A stretch of DNA of 41,460 nucleotides from Patescibacteria group bacterium (GTDB lineage: Bacteria; Patescibacteriota; Minisyncoccia; Phycocordibacterales; UBA9973): assembly GCA_043818335.1 (NCBI GenBank), contig JBDRFV010000019.1, positions 1 through 41,460 of the forward strand, read 5' to 3'. The translations under genes and the position numbers were made by a program. Under the pieces are notes generated by a model. The model did not search any database. It was not told the DNA's origin and worked only from the letters and a program-made list of their open reading frames with translations. Of the stretch, positions 1-28,300 are shown piece after piece (within the stretch, counting starts at the first letter, position 1; every line of letters starts with the position of its first letter).

Positions 1-1527
1 ATGAAATTAACAAAAACTGATTATTTAATATATAAAGACTGTGCTAAAAATGCTTGGTTGAAAATTCACAAGAAAGATATTTATTACGAAAAGCAGTTGT
101 CCGTTTTTGATCAAACCATAATAGAAACTGGAAATGAAGTAGATAAATTAGCACGGGATTTGTTTCCTAATGGAATTGAGGTAGAAGATAGAAATGATTT
201 TTCTGGTACGATGAAGTTGGTTGAAGCTAAAACACCTGTGATTTATCAGCCTGTTTTTGAGACTGATTTGTATAAAATTGTTTGTGATATTTTGGTTTGG
301 AACGAAAAGCAAGAAGTGTATGATTTATATGAAGTAAAAGCTTCTAATAGTGGTGAAAATAAAAAAGCAAAAGATGAATTATATAGTTATGATATAGCTT
401 TTCAGTATTTAGTTATGAAAGAATTAAACATGCCAATTGGTAGATTGAATTTAATTAGATTTAATAATGAATATATTAGAGGGGCTGAATTAGATTTAGA
501 AGAATTATTTATAAAAGAAGATTTTACGGAAAGAGTTTTTGAAATAAGAGATATCGTTGCTCACGAAATGGAAATTGCTCAGGATTTTTTATCTCAAGAA
601 AAAGAGCCATTTGGAAATTGTAAATGCATAACTCGTGGTAGAAGTTCGCATTGTACGACTTTTTCTTATTCAAATCCAAACGTGCCAGATTACAGTGTTC
701 ATGATATTTCACGAATTGGCATGTCTAAGAAAAAATTAGCAGAATTAATAGACAGCAGTATTTTTTTGATAGAAGACGTGCCAGAAGATTTTAAATTAAG
801 CGAAAAACAGAGAAATCAAGTTGAAGCTGTGCAATTAGATAAAGTTTATATAAATAAAGAAGAAATAAGAGAATTTATGAAAAATATAACTTTTCCAATT
901 TCTTTTTTAGATTATGAGACTTTTGCTGCTGGTGTGCCTAGGTTTGCTGGTTTTAGTCCTTTTAATCAAATAACTTTTCAGTTTTCTTTGCACATTTCTG
1001 AAGCCTCGCACGTGGCCGGACTACGGCCGAGGGATGAAAAAACAGAGCCAAGGCATGAAGAATTTATTTATACAGAAGATAAAAATCCAGATGAGCAGTT
1101 TGTTTTAGCTTTGAAAGAAAAATTACCAAATAGTGGAACCGTTATTGTTTGGAATAAAAGTTTTGAAATTGGTAGAAATAAAGATTTGGCAAAAAGAAAT
1201 CCTGAGTATAAAGATTTTCTTGATTCAATAAATACAAGAGTTATAGATCTAATGGATGTTTTTTCTGAACAGCATTATATTCACTCAAAATTTAAAGGAA
1301 AGACTTCTATAAAATATATTTTGCCGGTTCTTGCACCTGAATTGTCTTACAAAGTTTTAGATATTCAAGAAGGCGCGACTGCTTCGGATACTTGGAATAA
1401 AATTGTAAGTGATGAGTTTGATGAAAAAGAAAAGAAAGAAAAAATAGAAAGTTTGAAAACTTACTGCAAATTAGATACTTATGCAATGTATGCGATTTGG
1501 AAGCATTTAATTGATTTATTGGAATAA
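1..1527 (+). CDS. DUF2779-family protein (PD-(D/E)XK-like N-terminal module plus RNase H/exonuclease-like C-terminal module)
   Basis: 508-aa ORF. It has an N-terminal D...E-x-K-like block (CDILVW...YDLYEVKAS), a Cys cluster (CKCITRGRSSHC), then FLDYETF...PFNQITFQFSLH. This matches DUF2779 as I recall it; not searched. Confidence 0.7.
   Translation: MKLTKTDYLIYKDCAKNAWLKIHKKDIYYEKQLSVFDQTIIETGNEVDKLARDLFPNGIEVEDRNDFSGTMKLVEAKTPVIYQPVFETDLYKIVCDILVWNEKQEVYDLYEVKASNSGENKKAKDELYSYDIAFQYLVMKELNMPIGRLNLIRFNNEYIRGAELDLEELFIKEDFTERVFEIRDIVAHEMEIAQDFLSQEKEPFGNCKCITRGRSSHCTTFSYSNPNVPDYSVHDISRIGMSKKKLAELIDSSIFLIEDVPEDFKLSEKQRNQVEAVQLDKVYINKEEIREFMKNITFPISFLDYETFAAGVPRFAGFSPFNQITFQFSLHISEASHVAGLRPRDEKTEPRHEEFIYTEDKNPDEQFVLALKEKLPNSGTVIVWNKSFEIGRNKDLAKRNPEYKDFLDSINTRVIDLMDVFSEQHYIHSKFKGKTSIKYILPVLAPELSYKVLDIQEGATASDTWNKIVSDEFDEKEKKEKIESLKTYCKLDTYAMYAIWKHLIDLLE
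1003..1033. repeat. GC-rich hairpin element inserted in frame in the DUF2779 gene
   Basis: The sequence is GCCTCGCACGTGGCCGGACTACGGCCGAGGG. It contains CCTCG/CGAGG and GGCCG/CGGCC stems and is far more GC-rich than its flanks. It encodes ..EASHVAGLRPRD.. and shares CCTCG and CTACGG blocks with the elements at 21750 and 23020. Confidence 0.6.
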
Positions 1528-1577
1528 AAAAAGGGCTTATTCTATTACGAATAAAACCCTTTGCACCTTTATGGTGC
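1526..1577. terminator. Hairpin pair; intrinsic terminator whose U-tract lies on the minus strand
   Basis: An imperfect stem AAGGGCTTATTC / GAATAAAACCCTT spans 1531-1561. It is preceded on the + strand by A7 (1526-1532), which reads as U7 after the hairpin on the minus strand. A second hairpin GCACC-TTTAT-GGTGC lies at 1563-1577. Confidence 0.5.
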
Positions 1578-1639
1578 CAGTTAACTTTTCTGAACAATAA
1601 TTTTTTGTGTTTGCCGATTAGCGTTGCAATTTTTTCCCA

Positions 1640-3579: not shown

Positions 3580-5769
<2,190 letters not shown>

Positions 5770-5771: not shown

Positions 5772-7664
5772 TTATTTTTTCTCTTCAATTTCTTTTTTTA
5801 GTTTTTCTATAAAATCTTTAATAGAAATATTTTCTAATTTTTCCCCGCCTGCATCAGCTGTGTTGAAAGCATTGCGGGCAGGAGTTCTAGTTTCTACTGT
5901 TAGTTTTTCAGATTCTTTTTCTTTATCACCAATTACTATTACATACGGAATTTTTTGCATTTTTGCAGTACGAATTTTTTTACCCAAAGATTCATTTGAA
6001 GAATCTAATTCTACTCTAATATTTTCATTTTTTAATTCTTTATAAATTTTTTCTGCATAATCAGTTTGTTTTTCACTTATTGGAAGAATTACAACTTGCA
6101 CAGGTGATAACCAAAGAGGGAAGGCGCCAGCATAATGCTCTATCAAAACTCCCATAAATCTTTCAAACGAACCAAGAATTGCAACATGGAGCACAACTAC
6201 GCGATGTTTTTTGCCGTCTTCGCCTGTATAGTCCATATTAAAATTTTCTGGCTGGTTGAAATCAAGTTGGATTGTAGTTAGTTGCCATTCTCTGCCGATA
6301 GAATCTCTGACTTTTATATCAATCTTTGGTCCATAAAAAGCAGCTTCGCCTTCTTTAATTTCAAAAGGTACACCCCATTTTTTTACTGATTCTTCCAAGA
6401 TAGCTTCAGCTTTTTCCCAAATTTCATCTTTTCCAAAATACGCTTTTTTATTTTTTTTATCTCTAACAGAAATTTCTACTTTATAATTATTGAAACCAAA
6501 AATTTCATAGGTTTCGCGCATTAGACCAAAAATCATTTCAATTTCTGATTCAATTTGGTCTTCAGTAACAAAATGGTGAGTATCATCTTGAGTTATATTT
6601 TTAACACGCAATAATCCAGACAATTCTCCACTTTTTTCATTTCTGTATACAGTTGTATTTTCAGCTATTCTATATGGAAGATCTTTGTAACTATGAAGCT
6701 CAGAATTATAAATTTCAAAATGATGCGGACAGTTCATTGCTTTCATTACAAATTCATCACCGTTTTCATCTTTCATAACTGGCATCATGGCGTCATATTT
6801 TCCCATGTGACCACTTTTTATATAAAGTTCTTTTTTTGCAATATGTGGAATTGTTACAAAAGAATATCCTAGCGCTTCTTTTCTTGAGTAAATAAATCTT
6901 TCTAGCTCGTTTTTTATTATATTTCCTTTTGGTAAAAGCATTGGCAGACCTTTTCCTACTAATTCAGAAATTGTGAATAATTTTAATTCTTTTCCCAATT
7001 TTTTATGATCTCGTTTTTCTGCTTCTTCGCGCATTTTTTCATAATCTTCTAATTCTTTTTTATTTTCAAAAGCTAAACCGTAAATTCTAGTTAGCATTTT
7101 ATTTTTTTCATCTCCACGCCAATATGCACCAGCAACTCTATCTAATTTAAAACTGTCTGGATTTATCTCTTTTGTAGGATTTTCAGAATGTCCACCTCGA
7201 CATAAATCAGTAAACCCCGCCTTTGACGGGGCAAGCTCTCCAAAAGTGTATAAAGTAATTTTTTCCCTAAACGCTTCTTTAGAAGCGTCGGGCGATCCAG
7301 CTTTGCTGGATTTAGCCTCTTTATCTTTTATCTCTTTTATTAATTCTGTTTTGTATTCATTATCAGCGAAATATTTTAGCGCTTCTTTTTGTGTTTTTTC
7401 TGAGACTTTAAAACTTTTCCAGCTTTTCAAAATTTCTCGCATTTTCTTTTCAATTTTTGGCAGATCTTTATCAGAAATAGGGGATTTAAAATCAAAATCA
7501 TAATAAAAGCCATTTTCAATAACTGGGCCGATAGTGACTTTAGTTTCTGGATATAAATTTATTACGGCAGTTGCTAAAAGATGCGCAAGTGTGTGTCTAA
7601 TATTGTGTAGTTTTTCATTTGTTTCCATAAGTTTAATAATATCATATTCTTTTGCTTTTTTCAT
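5772..7664 (-). CDS. thrS: threonine--tRNA ligase (no N-terminal TGS domain)
   Basis: It has the editing-domain HxxxH (HNIRHTLAHLLA), GPVIENGFYYDF, DLCRGGH, a class II core and an anticodon-binding C-terminus (PLWLSPVQVVILPIS). The protein starts directly at the editing domain. Confidence 0.95.
   Translation of the reverse strand: MKKAKEYDIIKLMETNEKLHNIRHTLAHLLATAVINLYPETKVTIGPVIENGFYYDFDFKSPISDKDLPKIEKKMREILKSWKSFKVSEKTQKEALKYFADNEYKTELIKEIKDKEAKSSKAGSPDASKEAFREKITLYTFGELAPSKAGFTDLCRGGHSENPTKEINPDSFKLDRVAGAYWRGDEKNKMLTRIYGLAFENKKELEDYEKMREEAEKRDHKKLGKELKLFTISELVGKGLPMLLPKGNIIKNELERFIYSRKEALGYSFVTIPHIAKKELYIKSGHMGKYDAMMPVMKDENGDEFVMKAMNCPHHFEIYNSELHSYKDLPYRIAENTTVYRNEKSGELSGLLRVKNITQDDTHHFVTEDQIESEIEMIFGLMRETYEIFGFNNYKVEISVRDKKNKKAYFGKDEIWEKAEAILEESVKKWGVPFEIKEGEAAFYGPKIDIKVRDSIGREWQLTTIQLDFNQPENFNMDYTGEDGKKHRVVVLHVAILGSFERFMGVLIEHYAGAFPLWLSPVQVVILPISEKQTDYAEKIYKELKNENIRVELDSSNESLGKKIRTAKMQKIPYVIVIGDKEKESEKLTVETRTPARNAFNTADAGGEKLENISIKDFIEKLKKEIEEKK
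7215..7236. repeat. GC-rich hairpin element in frame in thrS
   Basis: CCCCGCCTTTGACGGGGCAAGC has a CCCCG/CGGGG stem. On the minus strand it encodes the extra ..ELAPSKAG.. just before the conserved FTDLCRGGH. It shares GGGCAAGC with the elements at 22650 and 23020. Confidence 0.6.
7271..7311. repeat. Second GC-rich double-hairpin element in frame in thrS
   Basis: Two perfect 7-bp stems, ACGCTTC-TTTA-GAAGCGT and ATCCAGC-TTTG-CTGGAT, are joined by CGGGCG. It encodes ..SSKAGSPDASKEAF... Confidence 0.55.
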
Positions 7665-7724
7665 GTTAAAGCGTATAATACGATTAAGTAAGTTAAATTA
7701 TTAATAAATTTAGAAATTAAATAT

Positions 7725-8648
7725 ATGGAAAAGAATAAAGGATTTATAGGAATTGGTTTGATAATAGCGATAATCGTTGGTGTTTTGGTAGTCGGTGGTG
7801 GAGCGTATTATATTGGAACAAAAAATGATATTGTTCCTGAAAATATAAATATGGAAGAAAATAATCTTCCGCAAGATAATGTTGTAGATAAAAACACTAT
7901 AACTAACCAACAGACAAAAGACGAACAAGCATCTGTTCCAGAAAAAACAACAGGTCCTAGTTCACCTTGCGCTTCAACAGCTCAACCTTCAATTACGATT
8001 CTTTCTCCAAATGGAGGAGAAACTTATACAGCTGGTCAACAAATTACAATAAAGTGGACAAGTTGCAATCTTCCTTCCACAACACCAGTTGATATTTTAT
8101 TACAGGCTCAATTTTCTTCAGGACCATGGTTCGGCCCTTCTGGTTTGGCAACTTATGGATTACAGTCAACTCATACATTAAATTCTGGATCAACAACAAT
8201 TACTCTTCCAATACAAGGTTCTGGGCAATGGTATGGAAGTGCTACGGATATGACTTATGGCACATATTATAAAATATGGATTTCAGAAGGTACTATAATA
8301 CAAGGTCCTGGTATTAGCGATGTTTCTGATAATTTATTTACAATTCAAACACAAAAAAATCCAATTCTTACTCAAACTCAAGCAGAAAATCTTGTTCTAT
8401 TAAATTGGGGTGGTTGCACCCTAGATACTTGTGGGTCCGTTGTTGTAACAGTTCAACAAAATACTGAAGGACAATATGTTGTGACTGCAATTTACAAAGA
8501 ACTTCGAGATGATTCTATAGGATCACAAAAAAAAGAAGCAATTGTTTTATATCAAAATGGAGTTTGGGTGCTTGGACAACCAACTTTAACATGGGCATGT
8601 CAGTTAAATCGCGGGCATCAAGATTTTAGTACAGTTTTTTGTATTTAA
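7725..8648 (+). CDS. membrane-anchored or secreted surface protein with an SPNGGE...IxW Ig-like module
   Basis: 307 aa with an N-terminal hydrophobic anchor. The conserved block TGPSSPCASTAQPSITILSPNGGETYTAGQQITIKWTSCN is shared with the next gene. Confidence 0.7.
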   Translation: MEKNKGFIGIGLIIAIIVGVLVVGGGAYYIGTKNDIVPENINMEENNLPQDNVVDKNTITNQQTKDEQASVPEKTTGPSSPCASTAQPSITILSPNGGETYTAGQQITIKWTSCNLPSTTPVDILLQAQFSSGPWFGPSGLATYGLQSTHTLNSGSTTITLPIQGSGQWYGSATDMTYGTYYKIWISEGTIIQGPGISDVSDNLFTIQTQKNPILTQTQAENLVLLNWGGCTLDTCGSVVVTVQQNTEGQYVVTAIYKELRDDSIGSQKKEAIVLYQNGVWVLGQPTLTWACQLNRGHQDFSTVFCI

Positions 8649-8676
8649 TTTTATTAATAATTAAAATAAAAAAATT

Positions 8677-9630
8677 ATGAAAAATAACAAAGGTTTTGGA
8701 ATGATAGCAGTATTAATAATAGTTGTTGCATTATTAGCATCAGGTGGAGTTGTGTATTATCTTAATAAAGATTTAAATAAAACTCCTGTAAATTTAGAAG
8801 ATGAAAATGTTTTGTTAGAAGAACAGGAACAGCAAAATGATTCAGAAGAAGTTTCTATTTTAGACGAATCAACTGGACCTAGTTCGCCTTGTGCGTCAAC
8901 GGCTGCGCCTTCAATAACTGTTTTGTCTCCAAATGGGGGAGAAACTTATACTGCGGGACAGCAAATTACAATAAAGTGGACAAGTTGTAACGGTGCTTCA
9001 AATTCTCAAGTAATGATTTCTCTTAAATCATCACAATCAGCTGGAAGTGAGATGGCAACTGTATCTGATTCCGGAATGGCTACTATTACTTTACCAACAG
9101 CATTGTATAGTGGAACAATTCCATTGGTGTCAGGAAAATATTATAAAATTGTTGCTCAATTAGGTGGAAGTGCAATGGGCCACATAGCTCCAACTGACGA
9201 ATCTGATAATTTATTTACAATAAATTCAAATTTGGCAGATGAAGATTGTTCTACATGGTTATCTTTTAATGATTTTGGAAATATTAAATATCCAAGTTGC
9301 TGGATAGCAAGTAATACAAAAGGAGGCAGTTATGGTACTTCCAACTTAACTGTTGGTATGTTATTAAAACCATCAGTAAATAGTCCAACAAGTGACAGTA
9401 TTAGTATTGGAGGATGGCAATACGGTTGTGAAAATGTAAATGTTTCTAGTGGAATGAGTCCAGCAACAAAAGCTTACTGCATACAATCAGAAGGAGGAAA
9501 TATTCCATGGACTGGTCAATATATAACTTCTATAAATCAGAACACTATTTACGGTATTCCAATGGTTACTCATTCAACAAATTCACAAGTGTTGAATATG
9601 TTTGATCAAATAGTTCAACATAATATTTAA
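8677..9630 (+). CDS. paralogous membrane-anchored or secreted surface protein
   Basis: 317 aa with the same N-terminal anchor type and the same 40-aa block (38/40 identical). The rest is divergent. Confidence 0.7.
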   Translation: MKNNKGFGMIAVLIIVVALLASGGVVYYLNKDLNKTPVNLEDENVLLEEQEQQNDSEEVSILDESTGPSSPCASTAAPSITVLSPNGGETYTAGQQITIKWTSCNGASNSQVMISLKSSQSAGSEMATVSDSGMATITLPTALYSGTIPLVSGKYYKIVAQLGGSAMGHIAPTDESDNLFTINSNLADEDCSTWLSFNDFGNIKYPSCWIASNTKGGSYGTSNLTVGMLLKPSVNSPTSDSISIGGWQYGCENVNVSSGMSPATKAYCIQSEGGNIPWTGQYITSINQNTIYGIPMVTHSTNSQVLNMFDQIVQHNI

Positions 9631-9645
9631 TAAAATATAAATTTT

Positions 9646-9673
9646 AAAAAGCCCCAAACGGGGCTTTTTGTTT
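9646..9673 (+). terminator. rho-independent terminator
   Basis: AAAAAGCCCC-AAAC-GGGGCTTTTTGTTT lies 16 nt after the stop at 9630. Confidence 0.85.
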
Positions 9674-9699
9674 GCTTTTTAAGACTAATATGCTAATAT
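9672..9699 (+). promoter_or_regulatory. putative sigma-70 promoter of rpmF
   Basis: TTGCTT-16 nt-TAATAT ends 9 nt before the ATG at 9709. It closely resembles the rpsP promoter at 20996. Confidence 0.4.
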
Positions 9700-9708
9700 A
9701 ATTACATT

Positions 9709-9933
9709 ATGGTAATACGAATGAGGCATACAAAATCGCATACGGCTAACAGGCGTTCACATCATGCGCTTAAAAAAACCGATTTTTCTAAGTGTGAAAA
9801 CTGTAAAGAACCAAAAAAGCGACATACAGTTTGTGCTTCCTGTGGTTTTTATCGTGGAATGAAAGTTTTGGATTTGGTTAAGAAAATAGAAAAGAAACAG
9901 AAGAAAGAAAAAGCGAAAAAAGCAAAAACATAA
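9709..9933 (+). CDS. rpmF: 50S ribosomal protein L32 with Lys-rich C-terminal tail
   Basis: MRHTKSHTANRRSHHAL plus a CENC...CASC zinc ribbon. The start may instead be the ATG at 9721. Confidence 0.85.
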   Translation: MVIRMRHTKSHTANRRSHHALKKTDFSKCENCKEPKKRHTVCASCGFYRGMKVLDLVKKIEKKQKKEKAKKAKT

Positions 9934-9950
9934 AAAACGAAATAAATTAT

Positions 9951-9990
9951 CCGCCTTAAGCTCTTCCCTTTGGGGAGAGTTTGAGAGGGG
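9951..9990. repeat. GC-rich hairpin in the rpmF-nusB spacer
   Basis: CCGCCTTAAGCTCTTCCCTTTGGGGAGAGTTTGAGAGGGG contains an imperfect CTCTTCCC/GGGGAGAG stem and has no U-tract. Its composition resembles the other GC-rich elements. Confidence 0.4.
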
Positions 9991-10001
9991 CAAAATCAAT
10001 C

Positions 10002-15900: not shown

Positions 15901-15947
15901 ATAAAAATCACTTATTTCTCAAGTGATTGAACCGTTACTTTTTACTA

Positions 15948-15976
15948 TTGACTTTTTAGCTCAAATTATATATTAT
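15948..15976 (+). promoter_or_regulatory. putative sigma-70 promoter
   Basis: TTGACT-17 nt-TATTAT lies upstream of the ORF at 16049. Confidence 0.4.
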
Positions 15977-16048
15977 AAAAACAAGAAAATTCACTCGAGT
16001 ATAAATTAGAAAGAGTGGATAAAATCTGCTCTTTTAAAATTCTAAAAA

Positions 16049-16285: not shown

Positions 16286-16311
16286 ACATGTTATACATAG
16301 GTTAATTTATT

Positions 16312-16342
16312 CCGTTGCGGCTTTCGTTGCAACGGTTTTTTT
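16312..16342 (+). terminator. rho-independent terminator
   Basis: CCGTTGC-GGCTTTCGTT-GCAACGG is followed by T7. Confidence 0.75.
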
Positions 16343-16356
16343 ATTACATTTTTATC

Positions 16357-16453
16357 TCTCCTCCTTTTTGAGGAGGAGTGCCCTGAGCTTTGCGAAGGGC
16401 GAGGTGGTGATTTTAATTACCACCCCCAACCCCCTCCTTGAAAAGGAGGGGAG
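16357..16453 (+). repeat. GC-rich multi-hairpin repeat, copy 2
   Basis: It has the same modules as copy 1 in the same orientation. It carries a 10-nt indel (TGAGCTTTGC, 16384-16393) and a different terminal loop. Confidence 0.9.
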
Positions 16454-16476
16454 TAAAATGCAATAACCCCCTAAAT

Positions 16477-16522
16477 CCCCCTTGTCAGGGGGACTTTTAT
16501 TTTTTCCTCCCCTGACAAGGGG
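16477..16522. repeat. GC-rich inverted repeat
   Basis: The 14-nt CCCCTTGTCAGGGG within CCCCCTTGTCAGGGGG (16477-16492) is the exact reverse complement of CCCCTGACAAGGGG (16509-16522). It is related to the terminal module of copy 1. Confidence 0.75.
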
Positions 16523-16577
16523 AGGTTAGGAGGGGTTTGATTTTATAAACAGCCCTTATTTTCCAAGCTATTTAAGC

Positions 16578-17072: not shown

Positions 17073-17098
17073 TCCGCGATTGACATCGCGGAATTTTT
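17073..17098. terminator. terminator between convergent genes
   Basis: TCCGCGA-TTGACA-TCGCGGA is followed by ATTTTT. Confidence 0.7.
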
Positions 17099-18968
17099 AT
17101 TGCACTTTTATTTCTATTTCTCCTAAATCTAATTTAAGTTTTTCCTCCTTGCCTTTAATTATAGTTTCAGGTTGGTATGATTTTGATAATTTAAGAGTAT
17201 TTTTTGTAATAAACATTGAGCCGTCTTTGTTTAATTTCATTTCTAATAACATTCCCTGCATAGTATCTTCAGAAAAATGCTGATCAAAAATAAAGTTTCC
17301 TAACGAGTATGCAATAAAGCCGTCTTTATAAACTTCTGTATCTTGAACTACATGTGGATGTTGGCCGATAACTATTTTTGCGCCATTGTCTATTGCGCTG
17401 TGAGCCAAATATTCTTGCCTGCTGTTGTGTACTTTTTTATATTCATCGCCGAAATGGAAAGTTATTATTAGATAATCAACTTTAGTAGCAGCGTTTTTTA
17501 CTATTTCTGTAAATCGTGGATTGCTTACTAGAAGAACTCCAGATTGAGTTTCTGTAGCTTTCATCCAATCTGGTCCCGTATCAGTAAATGCTAAATAGCC
17601 AATTTTTATTCCATATTTTTCTATAATAGTTGGATTTTCAGCTGCTATGCTATTTAATCCTCCACCAGTATAAAGTATTTCGTTTTCTTTTAATCTTCCT
17701 AAAGTATCTATAAATGCTTCTTTGCCCCAGTCGCCGATGTGGTTATTCGCAACAGAAAGAATACTAAAACCAGCGCCTTTTAGTGCTGGAATTACGGATG
17801 GATCCATTCTGAAAGAATATAGATTTTTTCTGTCTACGCCTTTATCTGAAGCTGAGCCTTCTAAATTAGCAAAAGCAATATCAGCTTTTTCTATTATGTC
17901 TAAATTTTTAAACAGTAAAGAATAATCGCCATTAAAATTTTTCATGACAGAATTTTTTACACCTCTGTCTAGCATAATATCTCCAGCAAAAACTAGTTTT
18001 ACAAAATCTGGATCTTTTTCTGCTAAAATATTCGGATCTTGTTTTGTCCAAGCTATGCTCGCTTCTTTTTCTGTGCCGTAAAATATATTTTTTCTTAGAT
18101 AATTTATTATATTTTGCATATCTTTTAATCTATCTGTGCTTCGTAATAAAGCAATTCCAATATTTCTTGGTTCTTCTCCGCCTAATGGTAGAGAAAAGAT
18201 GGATAATGCAGTTTGTAATGATTCATCTATATAACCTCTTTTTCCACCTAAATAGCCTTCTAGTTTAAGAAACTGACTGTTATTAAACCAACTATGTTTT
18301 TTATTATTAAAACTTTTTAAAGTTGTAATATCTAATAAGTCTTTATGATTTATATTTAGATATTTAGCGAATAAGAATAATTCAGAAGCTGTTGATAAAT
18401 TCTTTTCTGAAAGTCCGCTTGGGTCAGCAAATGAAGTAGAAGTTAATTTTAAATCTTGAACTTTTTGATTAAGTTTTTCTATAAAATTAGTTCTGTCAAA
18501 GCTTTCTGCAATTATTTCTGCTGCATCATTACTTGATTCAAGAAGTAGGGGATAAATCAAATCAGAAACTTTAATTTTTTCACCTAAATAAAATCCACCG
18601 TTTTCGCCTTCTGTGGATAATGCTTTTTGTGATACTTTTGCGATTTTATCTGTTTCTTTACTTTCTGTAGAAACAGTTGCAGTAAATAATTTAGAAATAG
18701 ATGCTATGGGTAAAATAACATCTTTGTTTTTTTCTAATATTATTTTACCTGTATCTAGATCTCCAACTAAAAATGCCTCGGCTTTTACTTTTGGTGGATT
18801 AGTATTAGCTTTTGTAAAATAAAAAAGTTCTTCTGTTTTTTCTTTATTTAAATTATTACTACTGTAAGTATTTATAGATTCGTAATTTAAAGCTATAAAA
18901 CTAAAAAATATCCAGATTATTCCAGTTATAATTAAGCTTATTATTAAAAATTTATACTTTTTTTGCAT
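17097..18968 (-). CDS. fusion of a D-alanyl-D-alanine carboxypeptidase (S11-like) with a CapA/PGA_cap metallophosphatase-like domain
   Basis: An N-terminal TM helix is followed by SxxK (ASISKLF) and SxN (SSND), with KRG in place of KTG. The C-terminal half carries CapA-type motifs: FAGDIMLDRGV, FANLEG, VANNHIGDWG, HFGDEY, GQHPHV, YSLGNFIFDQ. Confidence 0.8.
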   Translation of the reverse strand: MQKKYKFLIISLIITGIIWIFFSFIALNYESINTYSSNNLNKEKTEELFYFTKANTNPPKVKAEAFLVGDLDTGKIILEKNKDVILPIASISKLFTATVSTESKETDKIAKVSQKALSTEGENGGFYLGEKIKVSDLIYPLLLESSNDAAEIIAESFDRTNFIEKLNQKVQDLKLTSTSFADPSGLSEKNLSTASELFLFAKYLNINHKDLLDITTLKSFNNKKHSWFNNSQFLKLEGYLGGKRGYIDESLQTALSIFSLPLGGEEPRNIGIALLRSTDRLKDMQNIINYLRKNIFYGTEKEASIAWTKQDPNILAEKDPDFVKLVFAGDIMLDRGVKNSVMKNFNGDYSLLFKNLDIIEKADIAFANLEGSASDKGVDRKNLYSFRMDPSVIPALKGAGFSILSVANNHIGDWGKEAFIDTLGRLKENEILYTGGGLNSIAAENPTIIEKYGIKIGYLAFTDTGPDWMKATETQSGVLLVSNPRFTEIVKNAATKVDYLIITFHFGDEYKKVHNSRQEYLAHSAIDNGAKIVIGQHPHVVQDTEVYKDGFIAYSLGNFIFDQHFSEDTMQGMLLEMKLNKDGSMFITKNTLKLSKSYQPETIIKGKEEKLKLDLGEIEIKVQ

Positions 18969-18969: not shown

Positions 18970-20952
18970 CTAAATTAAAATATAATCTATAGTTTTTCTT
19001 TCTAAATCAACGTCTTTAACTTTTATTTTTACTGTGTCTCCTATTTTATATCTTTTTTTATTTTTCTGTCCTACTAGTTCAAACTTTTTCTCATCAAAAC
19101 TATAAAAGTCATCTTTTAGATTTCTAAGCTGTATTAAACCTTCACATTTTGTTTCTTTTTCTTCTACATATATTCCCCATTTTGTAACACCACTTATTAT
19201 TCCATCAAAATTTTGACCAATTCTTTCTGACATATACTCTACCTGCTTGTATTTTATAGAAGCTCGTTCTGCGTCTGATGCTTTTTTTTCTTGTTCAGAA
19301 GATTTTTGTGAAATTTTTTGGTAGCTTTCTAATTTATCTTTTGTAATTTTTTTACCGGATAAATAATCTTGCAAAAATCTATGCACTACTATGTCTGGAT
19401 ATCTTCTAATGGGTGAAGTAAAATGTGTGTAATATGCAAAAGCTAAACCGTAATGTCCGATATTTTCAGTAGAATAAATTGCTTTTGCCATGGATCTAAT
19501 TACAGCTTTGCTGATAGTTTCTTGTTCGTTTTTACCTTTTAATTTTTCTAAAAGTTTATTTAATTCTTTTGGTGGGATTACACCGTTTTTCATTGGCAAA
19601 TTATGCCCCATGCCTTTTAGAAATAAAGTTAAATCATGCATTTTTTCTTTACTTGGCAAGTCGTGAACTCTGTATACAAAAATTCCTTCTTCTTGGCCCT
19701 TTTTTGTACCTTTTGAAATAAGTTCAGCTACTTTCTTATTAGCTAAAAGCATGAATTCTTCTATTAATCTATTAGAATCACCTCTGATTTTTTTTATAAC
19801 TTTAATCGGCTTTCCATCTTTATCTAAAACAAATTTTACCTCTTCTTGATCCAAAGACATTGCACCGTGCTCAAATCTTTCTTCTGTTAATTTTTTAGCT
19901 AGATTATTTAAAATAGCTAGTTCCTTGTGATAAGCTAACTTGTTATTTTTGATAGCATCTTCAGCTTCTTGATAAGTAAAACGTTTTGCTGAGTGTATTA
20001 CAGTTTTTCCAAACCATTCTGATTTTATTTTTGCATTTTTATCTAAAACAAAAACCGCGCTCATTGTTAGTCTGTCTTTATTTGGAACTAAAGAACACAA
20101 GTCATTAGAAAGTACTTCTGGAAGCATTGGAATTGTTCTGTCTACTAAATAAACAGAAGTCGTTCGCCCTTTTGCTTCTTTGTCTAATTCACTGCCAGGT
20201 TTTACATAATTAGAAACATCAGCAATATGTATGCCTATTTCATATTCACCACCCCCAACCCCCTCCTTAGAAGAGGAGGGGAGTTTTCGAAATGAAATAG
20301 CATCATCGAAATCTTTTGCGTCTTCTGGGTCAATAGTGAAAGTTAAGGTTTTTCTAAAATCTTTTCTATTTTTATAATCTTCTGAACTTATACCGTTTTC
20401 TTTTATAATTTTTGCTTCTTTTTCTGCAGATTCAGATAAGGAATTGTCGAAACCTTTTTCAAGTGCAATAGCGTGCATTTCGGTTTCATTTTCTCCAGGA
20501 TTTCCAATTATTTTTTTTACTTCCCCGATTGGATTTCCTTGACTGTCTTTCCAAGAAATTATTTTCACAAAAACTTTCTGTCCAATTTCTGCATTATTTA
20601 ATTTATTTGGATCAATAAAAATATCAGCATACATTTTTATGTCATCTGGAACTAAAAATATATTTTTTTCTATTTTTTTTAAAACCCCAACAAAGCCATT
20701 TTTTGCTCGGGAAATTATATTCACAACTTTTCCAATTTCGCGACCACGTTTTTTGGAAAGCAATTCTATTTTTACTAAATCGCCATTTAATGCAGTATTA
20801 AGATGATTAGAATCAATTTCTATATCTATTTCTTTATTTTCTAAAGTTACATAGCCCATTCCTTTGCTATTTACAGAAATAACCCCTTCGAGTTTTTGCC
20901 TGCTGTTTTTGTTGGTTTTGTTTTTATTATTAGTTTTTTTCTTTTTTGCCAT
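18970..20952 (-). CDS. rnr: ribonuclease R
   Basis: It has the RNB core (DPEDAKDFDDAISF, HIADVSNYV, YLVDRTIPMLPE, HYGLAFAYYTHFTSPIRRYPD), a C-terminal S1 domain and a Lys-rich N-terminus. Confidence 0.9.
   Translation of the reverse strand: MAKKKKTNNKNKTNKNSRQKLEGVISVNSKGMGYVTLENKEIDIEIDSNHLNTALNGDLVKIELLSKKRGREIGKVVNIISRAKNGFVGVLKKIEKNIFLVPDDIKMYADIFIDPNKLNNAEIGQKVFVKIISWKDSQGNPIGEVKKIIGNPGENETEMHAIALEKGFDNSLSESAEKEAKIIKENGISSEDYKNRKDFRKTLTFTIDPEDAKDFDDAISFRKLPSSSKEGVGGGEYEIGIHIADVSNYVKPGSELDKEAKGRTTSVYLVDRTIPMLPEVLSNDLCSLVPNKDRLTMSAVFVLDKNAKIKSEWFGKTVIHSAKRFTYQEAEDAIKNNKLAYHKELAILNNLAKKLTEERFEHGAMSLDQEEVKFVLDKDGKPIKVIKKIRGDSNRLIEEFMLLANKKVAELISKGTKKGQEEGIFVYRVHDLPSKEKMHDLTLFLKGMGHNLPMKNGVIPPKELNKLLEKLKGKNEQETISKAVIRSMAKAIYSTENIGHYGLAFAYYTHFTSPIRRYPDIVVHRFLQDYLSGKKITKDKLESYQKISQKSSEQEKKASDAERASIKYKQVEYMSERIGQNFDGIISGVTKWGIYVEEKETKCEGLIQLRNLKDDFYSFDEKKFELVGQKNKKRYKIGDTVKIKVKDVDLERKTIDYILI
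20247..20283. repeat. copy of the intergenic repeat's terminal module, in frame inside rnr
   Basis: CACCACCCCCAACCCCCTCCTTAGAAGAGGAGGGGAG compares with ACCACCCCCAACCCCCTCCTTGAAAAGGAGGGGAG at 16419-16453. On the minus strand it encodes ..PSSSKEGVGGGE... Confidence 0.85.
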
Positions 20953-21734: not shown

Positions 21735-21749
21735 ATTAAAGAATTTTAA

Positions 21750-21776
21750 CCCTCGGGCATAGCCCACGGGCGAGCC
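21750..21776. repeat. GC-rich element (CCCTCGG...ACGGGCNAG family)
   Basis: CCCTCGGGCATAGCCCACGGGCGAGCC aligns at about 20/27 with the trmD-internal element at 23020. Confidence 0.65.
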
Positions 21777-21782
21777 AAAAAG

Positions 21783-22649: not shown

Positions 22650-22680
22650 CCCTCCTTCGCCTAAGCTTCGTAGGGCAAGC
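22650..22680. repeat. GC-rich element 8 nt upstream of the trmD start
   Basis: CCCTCCTTCGCCTAAGCTTCGTAGGGCAAGC has a CCTA..TAGG stem. It shares the CCCTC and GGGCAAG blocks with 23020 and 7215. Confidence 0.6.
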
Positions 22681-22688
22681 AATTTTTT

Positions 22689-23387
22689 ATGATAAAATTT
22701 CACATTATTACTATATTCCCAGATATGTTCAACTCTTATTTGAATGAGTCTATTATTGGGCGGGCGATTAAGAATAAAAAAATATCTGTTAAATTCTATA
22801 ATCCACGAGATTTTATAAAAAATAATAAAAATAAAACTGGTTACAAACCTGTTGATGATAAACCATACAGTGGCGGACCGGGAATGGTGATGAAAGCTGA
22901 GCCGATTTTGAAAGCAGTAGAAAAAGCTGTTAGTAAAATAAAAAATAAAAAGAAAATTTTAATTATAAATTTTGTGCCCAGTGCTGAAAAATTTACTACT
23001 GATTTCGCGAAAAAAGTTTCCCTCGGCCATGGCTCTACGGGCAAGGCTAAAAAATATACTGATATTATTTTAATCTGTGGCAGATATGAGGGGATAGATG
23101 CGCGAGTTGATAAAATTTTGAAAACAAAAAAAATATCTATTGGTGATTATGTTCTGACTGGTGGGGAAATTCCAGCGATGATTTTGGTTGATTGCATTTC
23201 TCGGCAGATTAAAGGCGTTTTGGGTAAATATGAAAGTTTAGAAGAAGAGAGAATTTCTAGTAGTGAAGTTTACACACGACCAGAAATTTTAAAATATAAA
23301 AATAAGAATTATAAAGTGCCTAAAGTTTTATTGTCTGGGCATCACAAAAATATAGAGAATTGGAAGAAAAATGAAAAACGAAACTAA
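22689..23387 (+). CDS. trmD: tRNA (guanine37-N1)-methyltransferase
   Basis: Motifs IITIFPDMF, DDKPYSGGPGMVM, CGRYEGIDARV and GDYVLTGGEIPAM. Confidence 0.92.
   Translation: MIKFHIITIFPDMFNSYLNESIIGRAIKNKKISVKFYNPRDFIKNNKNKTGYKPVDDKPYSGGPGMVMKAEPILKAVEKAVSKIKNKKKILIINFVPSAEKFTTDFAKKVSLGHGSTGKAKKYTDIILICGRYEGIDARVDKILKTKKISIGDYVLTGGEIPAMILVDCISRQIKGVLGKYESLEEERISSSEVYTRPEILKYKNKNYKVPKVLLSGHHKNIENWKKNEKRN
23020..23047. repeat. GC-rich element in frame in trmD
   Basis: CCCTCGGCCATGGCTCTACGGGCAAGGC encodes the extra ..SLGHGSTGKA.. just before the conserved ILICGRYEGID. Confidence 0.65.
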
Positions 23388-25116
23388 AAATTGTCAAAAT
23401 TGCAAAAAAGATTTTGTTATTGAGCAAGAGGATTTTGATTTTTATGAAAAAATAAAAGTTCCAGCGCCGACTTTTTGTCCGGAATGTAGATTGATAAGGA
23501 GAATGATGACATTTAATGTCAGAAATTTATATAACAGAAATTGTGATAATTGTGGTAAAAAAATGGTTTCTATTTTTAATCCTAGCGCTCCGTACAAAGT
23601 TTGGTGTTTTGACTGTTATTTTTCAGATAAATTTGACCCGTCTTCTTATTATGTAGATTATGATTTTTCAATAGATTTTTTTACTCAATATGAGAATTTT
23701 AGAAGGAATATTCCTTTACTTTGTATGGAACAATCGGGTAATAACAGTGGTGGATGCGAATATGCAAATTATACTTATGGAAGTAAAAACATATATCTTT
23801 CACACAATGTAGCTAAATCAGAAGATGTCTATTATTCAGTATTTGTGAACAGAGACAACAGAATGTGTTTTGATTCTCTAAGTTTTAGAGAGGACGAACT
23901 TTGTTATGAAGTTGTCGATTCTAACCATAATTATCATTGTTCCTACCTGACTAGATCAGATTCGTGTATTGATTCAATGTTTCTTTTTAACTGCGTGAAC
24001 TGCCAGAATTGCTTTATGTCTTCTAACCAGAGGAATCAAAATTATGTTTTTGGGAATAAAAAACTTTCAAAAACTGAATATGAAAAAGCTATAAAAAAAG
24101 AAAATTTAGCGTCTTTTTCTTCGTTGAAAAGGTTAACAGAAGAATATGAACAATTAATGAAAGATACAGTTGTTGTTTTTGCTAAATTGGTAAATGCTGT
24201 AAATTGTACCGGAGATATCATAGAAAATTCCAAAAATTGTCTTTCTTGTTTTTATATTTGGGGTTCAGAAAATATTCGCTATATTTTTTATTCTGTTAAT
24301 GCTTTAAAAGATTCTTATGACATGCTTGATTCTGGACGAGGAGAACGAATGTATGAATCTATTTGTAGTGGGCGAGGGAATTATGAAATTGCTTTTTGTG
24401 CTCGTACTTTTAATACGATGCAAACATACTATTGTGAAGGGTGCATTGATTTAAAAAATGCTTTTGGTTGCATTGGATTAAGAAAAAAACAGTATTGTAT
24501 TTTAAACAAGCAATACTCTAAAGAGGAATATTTTATTTTGTTAGAAAAAATAAAAAAACAAATGGAAGAAATGCCATATATTGATAAAAATAATTGTACA
24601 TATAAATTTGGAGAATTTTTTCCTGCTGAAATTTCTCCTTTTGCTTACAACGAAACAATGGCTTTTGAACAATTTCCATTATCAAAAGAAGAAATTCTTA
24701 AAAAAAATTATAGATGGTTTGATGATGCAGATAGGAACTATGATGCGACGTTAGATAGTAAAAATATTCCGGATGGTATTTCTGATGTGACGGATGAGAT
24801 TTTAAAAGAAACTATTAGTTGTGAACATGGAGGTTTATGTAATCATCAATGTACAAAAGCATTTCGTATCGTTCCAGTAGAATTGCAATTTTATAAACGT
24901 ATGAATTTGCCATTACCGAGGGCTTGTCCGAATTGCCGTTATTTTGTTAGATTAAAAAGGTCGTTGCCGTGGAGATTGTGGCATAGAGTTTGTATGTGTG
25001 AAAATGGGAATCATAATCACAAAGGAAAATGTCAGGTTGAATTTGAAACGCCATATTCTCCAGATAGATCTGAAATATTGTATTGCAAACAATGTTATCA
25101 AAAAGAATTTTTATAG
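23371..25116 (+). CDS. Cys-rich protein with zinc-ribbon modules at both termini (hypothetical)
   Basis: 581 aa, overlapping the trmD 3' end by 17 nt. The N-terminal CQNCKKDFVIEQEDFDFYEKIKVPAPTFCPECR and the C-terminal CTKAFRIVPVELQFYKRMNLPLPRACPNCR are copies of one module. The centre holds repeated Cys-containing short repeats. Confidence 0.7.
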   Translation: MKNETKNCQNCKKDFVIEQEDFDFYEKIKVPAPTFCPECRLIRRMMTFNVRNLYNRNCDNCGKKMVSIFNPSAPYKVWCFDCYFSDKFDPSSYYVDYDFSIDFFTQYENFRRNIPLLCMEQSGNNSGGCEYANYTYGSKNIYLSHNVAKSEDVYYSVFVNRDNRMCFDSLSFREDELCYEVVDSNHNYHCSYLTRSDSCIDSMFLFNCVNCQNCFMSSNQRNQNYVFGNKKLSKTEYEKAIKKENLASFSSLKRLTEEYEQLMKDTVVVFAKLVNAVNCTGDIIENSKNCLSCFYIWGSENIRYIFYSVNALKDSYDMLDSGRGERMYESICSGRGNYEIAFCARTFNTMQTYYCEGCIDLKNAFGCIGLRKKQYCILNKQYSKEEYFILLEKIKKQMEEMPYIDKNNCTYKFGEFFPAEISPFAYNETMAFEQFPLSKEEILKKNYRWFDDADRNYDATLDSKNIPDGISDVTDEILKETISCEHGGLCNHQCTKAFRIVPVELQFYKRMNLPLPRACPNCRYFVRLKRSLPWRLWHRVCMCENGNHNHKGKCQVEFETPYSPDRSEILYCKQCYQKEFL

Positions 25117-25132: not shown

Positions 25133-25160
25133 TTGACAAAAATCTGTAAATAAGTATACT
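25133..25160 (+). promoter_or_regulatory. putative sigma-70 promoter of rpoB with about 180-nt leader
   Basis: TTGACA-16 nt-TATACT. The leader contains the 8-bp inverted repeat TTTCGGAT (25183-25190) / ATCCGAAA (25238-25245). Confidence 0.45.
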
Positions 25161-25341
25161 TATCTGTGATTGAATGATTGTGTTTCGGATGAAATCTCCT
25201 GATTATTAATATGGTTTAATTATTAATTTTAATCAATATCCGAAATAAATAATAGGAAGCTGAAAAGAAGAGCGTTTTGTGTTTTTCTTTTTGTCTTTTT
25301 ATTTAATTTAATTTTTGATGTTTTAAATTCTCGTAAAAAAC

Positions 25342-28300
25342 ATGCACAAAGAAACAAAACGTCCTAAGAAGTATTTTTCTAGATATAAGAAGCCGCTAAT
25401 AGAATTTCCTAATTTAATAGAGTCGCAATTAAAATCTTTTGAATGGTTAGTTGAATCTGGCATAAAAGAAGTTTTGAAAGAATTTTCTCCAATAGAAGAT
25501 TATTCTGGAAAAAAGTTTCAGCTTGATTTAACTTCTTTTTCTGTTGAAGAACCAAAGCATGATGAAAATTCTGCAAAAATAAATAAAACTTCTTATCAAG
25601 GACTTTTAAAAATTCGTGTAAAGCTAACAAATAAAATTTTAGGAACTGTTAAAGATCAGGAGATTTTTATGTCTGAACTTCCTTTAATGACTTCGCATGG
25701 AACTTTTATAATAAACGGAGTAGAACGTGTGATAGTTCCACAGCTTGCTCGTTCTTTCGGTGTATTTTTTACAGAGTCTGAAAATAAAGGAAAAAGATTT
25801 TTTGGCGCAAAAGTTATTCCAGCTCGTGGGGTTTGGATTGAAATAGAATCAGAAGCTGATGGTGCAATTTATGTTCGTATAGATAAAAAAAGAAAATTCC
25901 CAGTAATTTCTCTATTTCGTGCGATGGGATATTTAAAAGATGAAGAAATTTTAAAAGAATTTTCCGCCAAAGGCGGATCCGCCTCCGGTGGAAAAGGTAA
26001 TTATGAAGAAATAATAAATATATGTTTAGCTAAAGATTCTGCTAAAACTCCAGCAGATTCTTATGTTGAAATATATAAAAGATTAAGAGACGGTGATATG
26101 GCTACAGCAGACAATGCTAAGGAATTTATTAATTCTTTATTTACTTCAGAAAGATATGATTTATCTCCAGTTGGTAGATTTAGATTTAATAAAAGATTTG
26201 AGAAATCAATGGAAGAAGTTGAGTTAGCTCGTCGTACTATTTCTAAAGAAGATTTAGTTAGTATTATAAAAAACATTATTGATTCTAATAATAATCCAGA
26301 TACAAGAGCTGATGATATAGATCACTTGGGACAAAGAAGAGTTCGTTTTGTTGGAGAAATGCTTCAACAAAAAATCAGAACCGGAATTATGCAGATTAAA
26401 AGAAATATTCAAGATAGAATGTCTATTATTGATGTTGATACTGCAATGCCAATTCAGATTATTAATCAAAGACCATTGCAAGCAAGAATAAAAGAATTTT
26501 TTACTACAAATCAACTTTCGCAGTTTATGGCACAGGAAAATGTGCTTTATGAAATGGAACATTTAAGAACTCTTTCAGCTCTTGGGCCAGGAGGTTTAAC
26601 TCGTGAAAGAGCAGGTCTTGAAGTTCGTGACGTGCATCCTTCTCATTACGGAAGAGTTTGTCCAATTCATACTCCAGAAGGACCAAATATTGGACTTATT
26701 TTGCATTTGGCTACTTATGCGAAAATAAATGATTTTGGGATTATTGAAACGCCTTATGTAAAAGTAAAAAACGGTAAAATTACTGGAGAAGTTCAGTATT
26801 TAAATGCACTTGAAGAAGAAAAATATAATATTACTCATGCTGGTATCTCTTATGATAAAAATGGAAAAATAACAGACGAAAGAGTTCCAGCTAGAATAAA
26901 AACTGAACCTGGGATGATTTCTAAAGAAGAAGTTGATTTTATAGATGTTGCTGCTAATCAGGCATTTTCTATCGCAACTTCTATGATTCCGTTTTTAGAA
27001 CACAATGACGCGAATAGAGCATTGATGGGATCAAATATGCAGAAGCAAGCTGTTCCATGTGTTCTTACAGAGATGCCACTTGTTGCTACTGGAATGGAAG
27101 AACTTACAGCTCGTGATTCAGGAAGATTAGTAATTGCACAAGAAGATGGTGTTGTTTCTTATATAGACGCTAAAAAGATTATAGTAAAAGGTAAAAAAGA
27201 GAAAACCTATGATTTAATTAATTTTTTAAGAAATAATAATTTTTCTGCTTTTCATCAACGTCCAATTGTTAATATGGGTGATAAAATTAAAAAGGGAGAT
27301 GTGATAGCTGATACTTCAAGTACTGTGGATGGACAGATTTCTATTGGACAAAATGCTTTTGTTGCTTTTCTATCTTGGTCTGGATCTAATTATGAAGATG
27401 CTATTATTGTTTCTGAAAGACTAGTAAAAAACAGTAAATTTACTTCTATATATTTAGAAGAATTTATTTGTGCAGTTCGTGATACAAAACTTGGACCAGA
27501 AATTACTACTCGTGATATTCCAAATGTTGGAGAATTAAAATTAAAAGATTTAGATGAAGATGGAATAATCCGTATTGGAGCAGAAGTTAGAGAGAATGAT
27601 ATTTTAGTTGGTAAAATTACACCAAAAGGTGAAACAGAATTAACACCAGAAGAAAGATTACTCAGATCTATTTTTGCGGAAAAAGCTCGTGACGTAAAAG
27701 ATACTTCATTAAGAATGGAGCATGGAAAACGCGGGCGTATTATTGGTGTAAAGATTTTTTCTCGTGATTTGGGGCATAGCCTAGAAGTTGGAATTATTAA
27801 AAAAATTATTATAGAAGTTGCACAGATAAGAAATATTTCAGTTGGAGATAAATTGTCAGGACGTCATGGAAATAAAGGTGTTATCTCGACTGTTTTACCA
27901 GAAGAAGATATGCCATACATGGCAGATGGAACACCGATAGATATTATACTTTCACCACTTGGTGTGCCTTCTCGTATGAACTTGGGACAGATTTTAGAGA
28001 TACATTTGGGCTTGGCTGCTGAGAAATTAGGCTATCAAGCTATTGTGCCATCTTTCTTGGGTGCGACTCATGACGAGATAAAAGAAGAATTAAAGAAAGC
28101 TGGAGTTCCAGAAAACGGAAGAGTAAAACTTTTTGATGGAAGAACTGGAGAAGATTTTAAACAAGATGTTGCAGTTGGTTGTATGTATATGTTAAAACTT
28201 CACCATATGGTTGAAGATAAAATACATATGCGTTCTATTGGGCCATATTCTCTTATTACACAGCAACCGCTTGGAGGTAAAGCTCAAGGTGGAGGTCAGA

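Follow-up and report, generated by a model that had tools for sequence, protein, structure and literature searches.

Conserved genes of a Patescibacteria group bacterium contain short patches of GC-rich, hairpin-forming DNA, which raises the question of what these patches are and how they came to lie inside reading frames. We analysed a stretch of 41,460 nucleotides from this member of the Candidate Phyla Radiation (CPR) (GenBank assembly GCA_043818335.1, contig JBDRFV010000019.1), the whole of which is called the window below. Its GC content is 30.6%, and a scan with a 24-nt sliding frame found eight stretches of at least 24 nt with at least 70% GC, compared with about 0.8 in shuffled sequences. 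These eight coincide with GC-rich patches pointed out in a preliminary description of the window, which had taken them for one family of hairpin elements inserted in frame into essential genes. Our analysis shows that the patches form several families, at least six to eight, and not one. The explanation that we favour, and regard as probable, is that they are selfish GC-rich palindromic modules that spread by copy-and-paste in AT-rich CPR genomes, the main element, F1, being a gene-less derivative of a cassette that carries a DUF559 endonuclease.

CPR genomes are tiny, gene-poor and thought to be streamlined; yet a large share of one repeat family sits in the most conserved genes, including those for RNA polymerase, gyrase, aminoacyl-tRNA synthetases, RNase R and DNA repair enzymes. 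The host genes of the window were verified by Pfam and PDB searches and comprise DUF2779, pheS, gyrB, thrS, a nusB-NUDIX gene, rnc, SMC, a PBP-CapA fusion, rnr, rpsP, trmD, rpoB, rpoC, dnaG and rpoD.

Seven in-frame insertions absent from close relatives

Syntenic contigs of the closest relatives were found through RNase R and GyrB homologues (fetched loci carry L numbers; L122 and L124 are one relative), and insertions were called from protein and DNA alignments with L122/L124 and also with L121 and L246. Identity of L122/L124 to the window is 96-97% for S16 and the KH protein, 92% for RpoB, 89% for GyrB and TrmD, 77% for RNase R and 68% for ThrRS. Against orthologues of 68-92% identity, seven discrete insertions stand out in the window, three of them in thrS and one each in DUF2779, rnr, trmD and rpoB (Table 1). 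Their GC content is 0.51-0.77, every length is a multiple of 3 nt and all are free of stop codons, while the remaining indels of the same host genes are AT-rich. The probability that seven of seven lengths are multiples of three by chance is (1/3)^7, or about 5e-4.

The alignments show that presence and absence vary among orthologues, as all seven inserts are absent from near relatives. The DUF2779 insert is missing from the L124 and L246 orthologues, the trmD insert from L122, L125 and L066, and the rpoB insert from L122, in spite of 92% identity. In thrS, the 39-nt insert has clean boundaries and is missing from L121 and L124, the 21-nt insert from L121, L124 and S. aureus ThrRS, and the 51-nt insert from L121, L124 and L125. 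Six sites proposed before (DUF2779, thrS at 7215 and 7271, rnr, trmD and rpoB) are thus real insertions, but the thrS insert at 5844-5882 had been overlooked. The relatives hold GC-rich inserts of their own elsewhere, such as RSRLLGDLPER in rnr of L125 and RGGAL and GLLAPGG in trmD of L066.

Comparison with solved or predicted structures locates several of the sites. The thrS and trmD inserts are gaps against solved homologues, the window protein having extra residues at the trmD site relative to H. influenzae TrmD. The rpoB site is the position of a lineage-specific insertion of about 120 aa in other beta subunits. The rnr insert adds 8 aa to the window protein compared with B. subtilis RNase R, and in the AlphaFold model of RNase R residues 224-236 form a loop between strands 218-223 and 237-244, with a predicted local distance difference test score below 50 at 229-233.

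The gyrB patch turned out to be of another kind. Although it had been listed as an in-frame insertion, it is a replaced linker, that is, a substitution without change of length in which AT-rich sequence has given way to GC-rich sequence within an acidic linker, itself variable throughout the 120 homologues. Module 1, CC(A/G)CCGACGCTGAAGCTTTGGCGGG, recurs at this site in L247 with an intact stem, CCCGCC/GGCGGG, and module 2, GCCGAAGGYCCYGAGCTTGTYGAAG (read as AEGPELVE), recurs at this site in L246 and is shared by many further homologues. The window copy has no significant fold.

F1, a four-hairpin element inside and between CPR genes

The largest module, F1, has two full intergenic copies in the window. 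Its four hairpins in the copy at 15811-15900 are HP1 (CTCCTCC/GGAGGAG), HP2 (GCCC/GGGC), HP3 (GGTGGT/ACCACC) and, after the linker CCCAA, HP4 (CCCCCTCC/GGAGGGG). The 19-mer ACCACCCCCAACCCCCTCC from its right arm is present three times in the window, with none expected. We built a covariance model (R1) from 44 full copies; it scores the rnr patch at 17 bits (E=0.007) and finds none of the gyrB, trmD, thrS, rpoB and DUF2779 patches, so the claim of a single family fails. Between the two direct F1 copies (15901-16356) lie about 450 nt with a small hydrophobic open reading frame (ORF) (~16050-16285, 78 aa). The SMC-PBP spacer is much shorter in L122 than in the window, and L121 has a DUF559 gene there.

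F1 is widespread. At least 120 genome contigs contain the right-arm 19-mer, and at least 120 metagenome contigs a CPR-specific left-arm pattern. Among the matches listed we counted 118 distinct low-GC F1 copies, 49 with both arms and 69 with the left arm only. Fifty-three of the 118 (45%) are intragenic, with an open frame that continues for at least 40 aa, and often hundreds, to either side. Pfam domains were detected in 18 of 20 host ORFs scanned, and the hosts include TopA, FtsK, UvrA, UvrB, LigA, PolA, the CCA-adding enzyme, IF-2, Tgt, MnmA, PheT, TsaD, LepA and an ATP synthase subunit. In the closest relatives of the window (L121-L124) there is no copy of F1.

Intragenic copies are strongly biased in orientation: 47 of 53, and all 29 full-length ones, stand in the orientation with open frames, which is translated approximately as PLLxEEGxGGG(N/D)SKKNHLALKGTPPQKGGE. 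Since the reversed consensus has a stop codon in every frame, this bias is the expected residue of purifying selection. Because the lengths are all multiples of three, the copies stop-free and the orientation biased, the inserts in general are probably translated into short Gly/Pro/Ser/Ala/Glu-rich peptides; SFRKLPSSSKEGVGGGEYEIG would be an example of a peptide that spans an insert junction. Splicing or ribosomal bypass of the inserts was also considered, and was rejected in view of the multiple-of-three lengths, the stop-free copies and the strong orientation bias.

The stems of F1 are almost invariant across CPR genomes of 32-46% GC. The base pair beside the GGTGGT/ACCACC stem of HP3 is mostly not a Watson-Crick pair: among 45 full copies, 20 have G.T at this position, 7 have A.C and very few have a perfect pair; the corresponding regions of the window copies are 15848-15872 and 16404-16428.

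Outside CPR, ACCACCCCCAACCCCCTCC together with a hairpin occurs in Sphingomonadales, Spirosoma/Cytophagales, Desulfobulbaceae, Geobacter, Campylobacter and a cyanobacterium. The copies are often inverted doublets and often follow stop codons with a run of T, and non-CPR copies score 30-53 bits with the CPR covariance model, which aligns to them over its full length. In IMG/VR, the 19-mer was found only in 14 viral contigs, all GC-rich and non-CPR, and a plasmid collection gave only five unannotated sphingomonad matches. Since neither the left arm nor the thrS 39-mer turned up in IMG/VR, a phage vector for the CPR elements was rejected.

Several loci show unusual arrangements. At L130, uvrB (7711-9993) contains two full F1 copies, and at L126, ftsK (7364-9706) holds, besides a full F1 and a copy of F5, a left and a right arm fused in swapped order. 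Copies with the left arm only in L138, L200, L207, L221 and L237 are followed by CTGTGGATAAC, which resembles a DnaA box, and then by AT-rich DNA, so that F1 may lie near replication origins in some genomes.

Repeated occupation of one site in RNase R

The rnr site offers a view of gain and loss at a single position. In a MAFFT alignment of the 120 best RNase R homologues, the ten closest to the window protein (70-86% identity) have no insert between DDAISF and YEIGIHIADV. Other homologues carry at that site a full element (~33 aa), a right arm, a left arm, another frame of a hairpin or unrelated inserts. Element-derived inserts are present in 44 of the 120, and a crude neighbour-joining tree requires at least 20 gains or losses, compared with 36 for shuffled tips; it places the window protein inside an insert-free clade. 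The window rnr copy is 95% identical to the window's own intergenic copies versus 85% to the rnr copy of L125. Repeated gain and similarity within the genome therefore indicate that the site was hit repeatedly or that copies were homogenised within each genome.

Smaller families and evidence of movement

Most of the other patches belong to further families, here F2 to F8 (Table 1). F2 has the consensus CCCTCGGCC-GTAG..CTAC-GGGCGAGG and comprises the trmD insert, the DUF2779 insert (as reverse complement), the copy at 21748 and one in L134. Two nucleotide blocks pointed out earlier, CCCTCGG and ACGGGCRAG, do mark this family. As for shared blocks in general, comparison with composition-matched shuffles after removal of obvious copies left a modest excess at k=7-8 (p<=0.01), but nothing significant at k=9.

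F3, the thrS 51-mer, recurs in gyrB of L248, where stem 1 differs by compensatory changes (GAC/GTC versus AGC/GCT). F4, the thrS 39-mer, has a copy with 41 of 42 nt identical in the uracil-DNA glycosylase gene of L124/L122, which is missing from L246, and partial copies in ftsK of L164 and at two places in L239. Copies of F5, the rpoB type, are found in L152 (23 of 23 nt), in ftsK of L126/L144 and in L200/L207. F6, the thrS 21-mer, is present at the same site in L125. Full-length copies of F7, 88-92% identical, occur in L202, L176, L169 and L170 and partial ones in L173, L134, L025 and L167. F8, as judged by eye, resembles hairpins nested in L211, L224 and L243. Additional side observations concern nesting: at other loci (L135, L143, L211, L224, L243) whole hairpin modules are inserted in the loops of hairpin 2 or 3, and ligA of L239 (8792-11098) holds several modules in one gene.

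Clear hairpins are formed by the patches of rpoB, thrS (all three, a/b/c), rnr and DUF2779 and by that at 9951. Stems had been claimed for every patch, but those of trmD and gyrB are weak or decayed. Likewise, the related intergenic patches at 15811, 16357, the 16477 area, 9951 and 21750 were confirmed as elements, but the one at 22650-22680 was assigned to no family, as it gave no match above shuffled controls and no significant fold, and aligns weakly to F2.

Near-identity over 38-42 nt thus links different genes, and genes with intergenic DNA, and identical copies recur in independent assemblies. The same module in different genes of different genomes demonstrates copy-and-paste mobility. 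The earlier preference for mobility over codon drift is upheld by the lack of the inserts in the nearest relatives, by the same modules in other genes and by the coexistence of intergenic and in-frame copies.

Table 1 Repeat elements and GC-rich patches of the window. Positions are those of the window; fold z is the z-score of folding where given.
Feature	Position	Strand	Family	Description
DUF2779 insert	1003-1032	+	F2, reversed	30 nt, GC 0.77, peptide ASHVAGLRPR, nested hairpin
gyrB GC-rich linker segment	5476-5533	+		two modules, ~5476-5501 and 5509-5533
thrS 39-nt insert	5844-5882	-	F4	near C-terminus, reads PARNAFNTADAGG
thrS 21-nt insert	7218-7238 (feature 7215-7238)	-	F6	single hairpin, ELAPSKA
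thrS 51-nt insert	7269-7319	-	F3	two hairpins, reads EAKSSKAGSPDASKEAF, fold z = -3.9
Intergenic hairpin	9951-9991		F8	upstream of nusB-NUDIX gene, fold z = -3.7
Full F1 element	15811-15900	+	F1	four hairpins, intergenic, covariance model 93 bits
Second full F1 element	16357-16455	+	F1	intergenic, 10 extra nt (16384-16393) in HP2 loop, 93 bits
Double-hairpin element	16465-16539		F7	intergenic, fold z = -4.9
F1 right arm in rnr	20247-20284	+ (rnr on minus)	F1	ACCACC-CCCAA-HP4, read as LPSSSKEGVGGG
rnr insert	20248-20271			net +24 nt, 36 nt in place of 12
Intergenic copy of trmD type	21748-21778	+	F2	after KH-domain gene
GC-rich patch	22650-22680			upstream of trmD
trmD insert	23022-23048 (feature 23019-23048)	+	F2	27 nt, LGHGSTGKA, decayed stem
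rpoB insert	25963-25992	+	F5	30 nt, SAKGGSASGG, two TCCGCC/GGCGGA-type hairpins, fold z = -4.4

A DUF559 endonuclease gene beside F1

A gene of about 115 aa recurs beside intergenic F1 copies. Its product matches Pfam DUF559 with E-values of 1e-28 to 1e-33, and its top match among solved structures is 3HRL (E = 1e-19). A hidden Markov model (HMM) search found 20 DUF559 ORFs in the fetched loci, of which 19 lie within tens of nucleotides of a module, in four or more phyla. The CPR loci with this arrangement are L133, L184, L213, L062, L136, L182, L217 and L141; the non-CPR ones are from Geobacter (L056), L097, Kapaibacterium (L074), Sphingomonadales (six syntenic loci) and Spirosoma (L080).

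In L136, L182, L097, L074 and L080 the DUF559 gene stands between inverted arms, in the order hairpin-linker-GGTGGT, gene, ACCACC-linker-hairpin. The short F1 looks like a derivative that has lost the gene, because GGTGGT and ACCACC, which flank DUF559 elsewhere, pair with each other as its hairpin 3. In L141, a DUF559 domain is in frame within a DNA methylase ORF; a left arm lies upstream of the domain, and downstream of it the ORF encodes GTPPQ, a peptide resembling the element. Behind the second F1 copy of the window stands ATGCAATAA (16458-16466), which matches the first two codons of the DUF559 gene in L184; this is only a hint that the start of a lost DUF559 gene may persist here.

As a control that was not chosen for the element, three DUF559 genes were picked by protein similarity alone. 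Each has a different neighbourhood: one follows a tRNA synthetase gene (L263 and related loci), another gyrA (L273) and the third, in a Berkelbacteria genome, an RNase T gene (L276). All three have an element or arm 9-12 nt upstream of the start codon.

The gene beside F1 belongs to the VSR/DUF559 group of PD-(D/E)xK nucleases (PMC3424549), and one of the known nucleases of the Vsr fold is a homing endonuclease (PMC3239194, PMC3424549). Among predicted targets of programmed inversion, 'DUF559 domain-containing protein' is over-represented (PMC9881135), which fits genes flanked by inverted repeats. The titles and abstracts of the DUF559 papers listed yielded none that linked the domain to repeats.

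Two observations concern annotation. Many CPR DUF559 genes (among P0241-P0360) are on contigs shorter than 2 kb, as expected if DUF559 genes and repeats break assemblies. Gene calls P0244, P0258, P0279 and P0284 start inside the upstream element, giving spurious N-terminal extensions.

How the modules may have spread

On the account that we favour, small GC-rich palindromic modules would multiply by copy-and-paste in AT-rich CPR genomes, and an intragenic insertion would persist only if its length is a multiple of three, its frame and orientation are free of stops and its site is a tolerant surface loop or linker. F1, about 90 nt long with four hairpins, would be a gene-less derivative of the DUF559 (Vsr-fold, PD-(D/E)xK) cassette, similar to a miniature inverted-repeat transposable element (MITE). 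With less confidence, we suggest that a cut by the DUF559 nuclease starts copying through repair; such a cut followed by repair would explain precise insertion without target-site duplication.

Several points weigh against this account. There is no target-site duplication at the seven pairs of filled and empty sites of the window, and neither duplication nor conserved target motif around the 49 full F1 copies, whose flanks are merely A-rich. Covariation is uninformative in the near-invariant F1 stems and lends little support to the structure. DUF559 is found beside only about 6% of F1 copies, none is encoded in the window, and F2-F6 have no demonstrated link to it. The first DUF559 loci were all chosen for holding the element and are a biased sample. 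They are also partly syntenic (the six Sphingomonadales loci; L133 and L184, which share flanks; L213, which matches the L263 set), and there are accordingly fewer independent cases. Finally, the association has other possible causes, namely a ribosome-binding site, a terminator or a preference of DUF559 for insertion at hairpins.

A stronger form of the account, which we put forward only tentatively, holds that the hairpin arms and the DUF559 gene make up a selfish cassette, not recognised so far and shared across phyla, whose Vsr-like enzyme would recognise the extruded arms, nick them and drive repair copying of gene-less arms. Vsr itself is a T:G-mismatch nickase, and recognition might proceed through the conserved non-Watson-Crick pair by the GGTGGT/ACCACC stem. 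The cassette would explain both why insertion is precise and free of duplication and why the same protein loops are hit again and again. DUF559 endonucleases are not known as transposases.

The strongest competing explanation, to which we give a real but minor chance, is that the modules are moved by an HUH/Y1 transposase of the RAYT (REP-associated tyrosine transposase; REP, repetitive extragenic palindrome), TIRYT or IS200 type, or by host recombination or templated repair, with DUF559 a mere passenger or user of hairpins. RAYTs are the presumed movers of REPs and REPINs, and TIRYTs those of families with terminal inverted repeats (PMC3733652, PMC3116915), and end hairpins without target-site duplication are compatible with chemistry of the IS200/IS605 type. 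Most F1 copies have no DUF559 gene nearby, and the 3' arm of HP4 (GGAGG), 9-13 nt before the DUF559 ATG, could be a plain Shine-Dalgarno site. However, six-frame translations of the fetched loci (~1.9 Mb) yielded no Y1 transposase homologue and no RAYT, a weak test made with a three-sequence HMM. The F1 consensus contains no GTAG, CTAC, CGTC or GACG, and in F2 GTAG/CTAC is at the centre of the palindrome and not at its end; since the tag is missing, F1 is not a member of the GTAG- or CGTC-tagged REP families. Moreover, adjacency to DUF559 recurs across unrelated neighbourhoods and phyla.

It is rather unlikely that the hairpins are kept mainly for a function, as terminators, mRNA stabilisers or attenuators, or as linkers or pause sites in genes, with their spread secondary. 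The near-invariant stems would fit such a role, as would the many non-CPR copies that follow stop codons and precede T runs, the compensatory changes that maintain pairing in stem 1 of F3, the occupation of one and the same site of tgt in three loci, and the full copies in mnmA of three loci. Against it, the nearest relatives have no inserts in rnr, trmD, rpoB, thrS and DUF2779, the stems of trmD and gyrB are decayed, half and full copies alternate at one site, and CPR copies are not followed by a T run. A functional role is possible for some hairpin copies, which would leave the absence from near relatives unexplained.

That the patches never moved, being ancestral variable loops drifting towards Gly/Ala/Pro codons or else assembly artefacts, is highly improbable: gyrB would suit it, as a substitution only, in a linker variable in every homologue, but the near-identity of 38-42 nt between different genes and with intergenic DNA, the identical copies in independent assemblies and the clean insertion boundaries all contradict it.

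Relation to known repeats

Rickettsia palindromic elements (Ogata et al. 2000, 2002, via PMC10969869) are the closest analogy, and the earlier comparison with them holds up: both are palindromic repeats in frame in unrelated genes, with presence varying among orthologues. They further share the existence of several families, a reduced AT-rich genome, housekeeping genes as hosts and the lack of a known transposase, and the sites may likewise be surface loops. They differ in phylum and sequence and in size, at ~100-150 bp compared with 21-51 nt for the modules here (~90 for F1). In our case, moreover, half and full copies alternate at one site, and F1 has kin in distant phyla, beside DUF559. The likeness would be one of functional analogy and not of membership.

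REPs, bacterial interspersed mosaic elements and REPINs (PMC3733652, PMC3116915) are similarly imperfect palindromes of 20-40 nt in many copies, single or as inverted doublets or mosaics, mostly intergenic and sometimes in the same kinds of host genes. In other phyla, intragenic REPs have been reported from uvrA/B and from the genes of ligases, polymerases and tRNA synthetases (PMC3733652). In contrast to REPs, about 45% of the sampled F1 copies are intragenic, far above the usual, and the neighbour is a PD-(D/E)xK nuclease and not an HUH transposase. MITEs share inverted terminal arms with a gene-carrying unit, as F1 does with the DUF559 unit (L136, L182, L097, L074, L080), but the lack of target-site duplication noted above, at the seven window site pairs and the 49 full copies, sets F1 apart from them. 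The palindrome-associated elements (PATEs) derived from IS200/IS605 likewise have hairpins at both ends and no target-site duplication, and they insert 3' of a fixed tetra- or pentanucleotide with TnpA supplied in trans; for F1 no fixed target was seen, only A-rich flanks, and the three-sequence HMM found no TnpA in the fetched loci.

Small dispersed repeats of heterocystous cyanobacteria were reportedly described by Elhai and co-workers in 2008. These and the GC clusters of yeast mitochondria are, by description, hairpins of ~20-50 nt that seem to move with no enzyme known for it, nest in one another and are occasionally in frame, in an AT-rich genome; hosts and sequences are different. The Vsr-fold homing endonuclease I-Bth0305I (PMC3239194, PMC2677866) is a free-standing selfish nuclease and a precedent for repair-mediated copying. 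It differs from our case, in which there is no intron or intein and the putative nuclease gene lies between hairpin arms.

Literature searches with exact sequence strings, and for palindromic elements together with CPR names, found no paper on such elements in CPR. The suggestion of novelty therefore appears to stand for their occurrence in CPR, but not for the kind of element, as intragenic REPs in repair and replication genes are known (PMC3733652).

If our account is right, selfish DNA shapes proteins even in CPR, and many odd Gly/Pro-rich "CPR-specific insertions" known from alignments owe their existence to it. The inserts introduce errors into alignments, phylogenies and structure prediction for these lineages, and would also break metagenome assemblies. 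Through its tight link with the modules in several phyla, DUF559, a very common domain of unknown function, gains a testable role, and REP-like elements without a RAYT gain a candidate enzyme. If real, the cassette would also show what the large DUF559 family does and be a new route of protein remodelling in streamlined genomes.

Other features of the window

Rfam 15 yielded one tRNA in the window and nothing else, with chance-level matches only at a relaxed E-value, and no match at gathering score in nine non-CPR loci. Two adjacent paralogous genes (7725-8648 and 8677-9630) encode putative secreted proteins and have in common a 155-nt block of 79% identity (7923-8077, 8845-8999); the GC-rich stretch at 8884-8913 is part of this conserved coding block and no repeat element. 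The gene at 9981-10901 encodes a NusB-NUDIX fusion of unusual architecture, and that at 17097-18968 a D-Ala-D-Ala carboxypeptidase (Peptidase_S11) fused to a PGA_cap domain. Finally, 23371-25116 encodes a Cys-rich protein of 581 aa with a weak match to treble-clef zinc fingers, the start of which overlaps the end of trmD.

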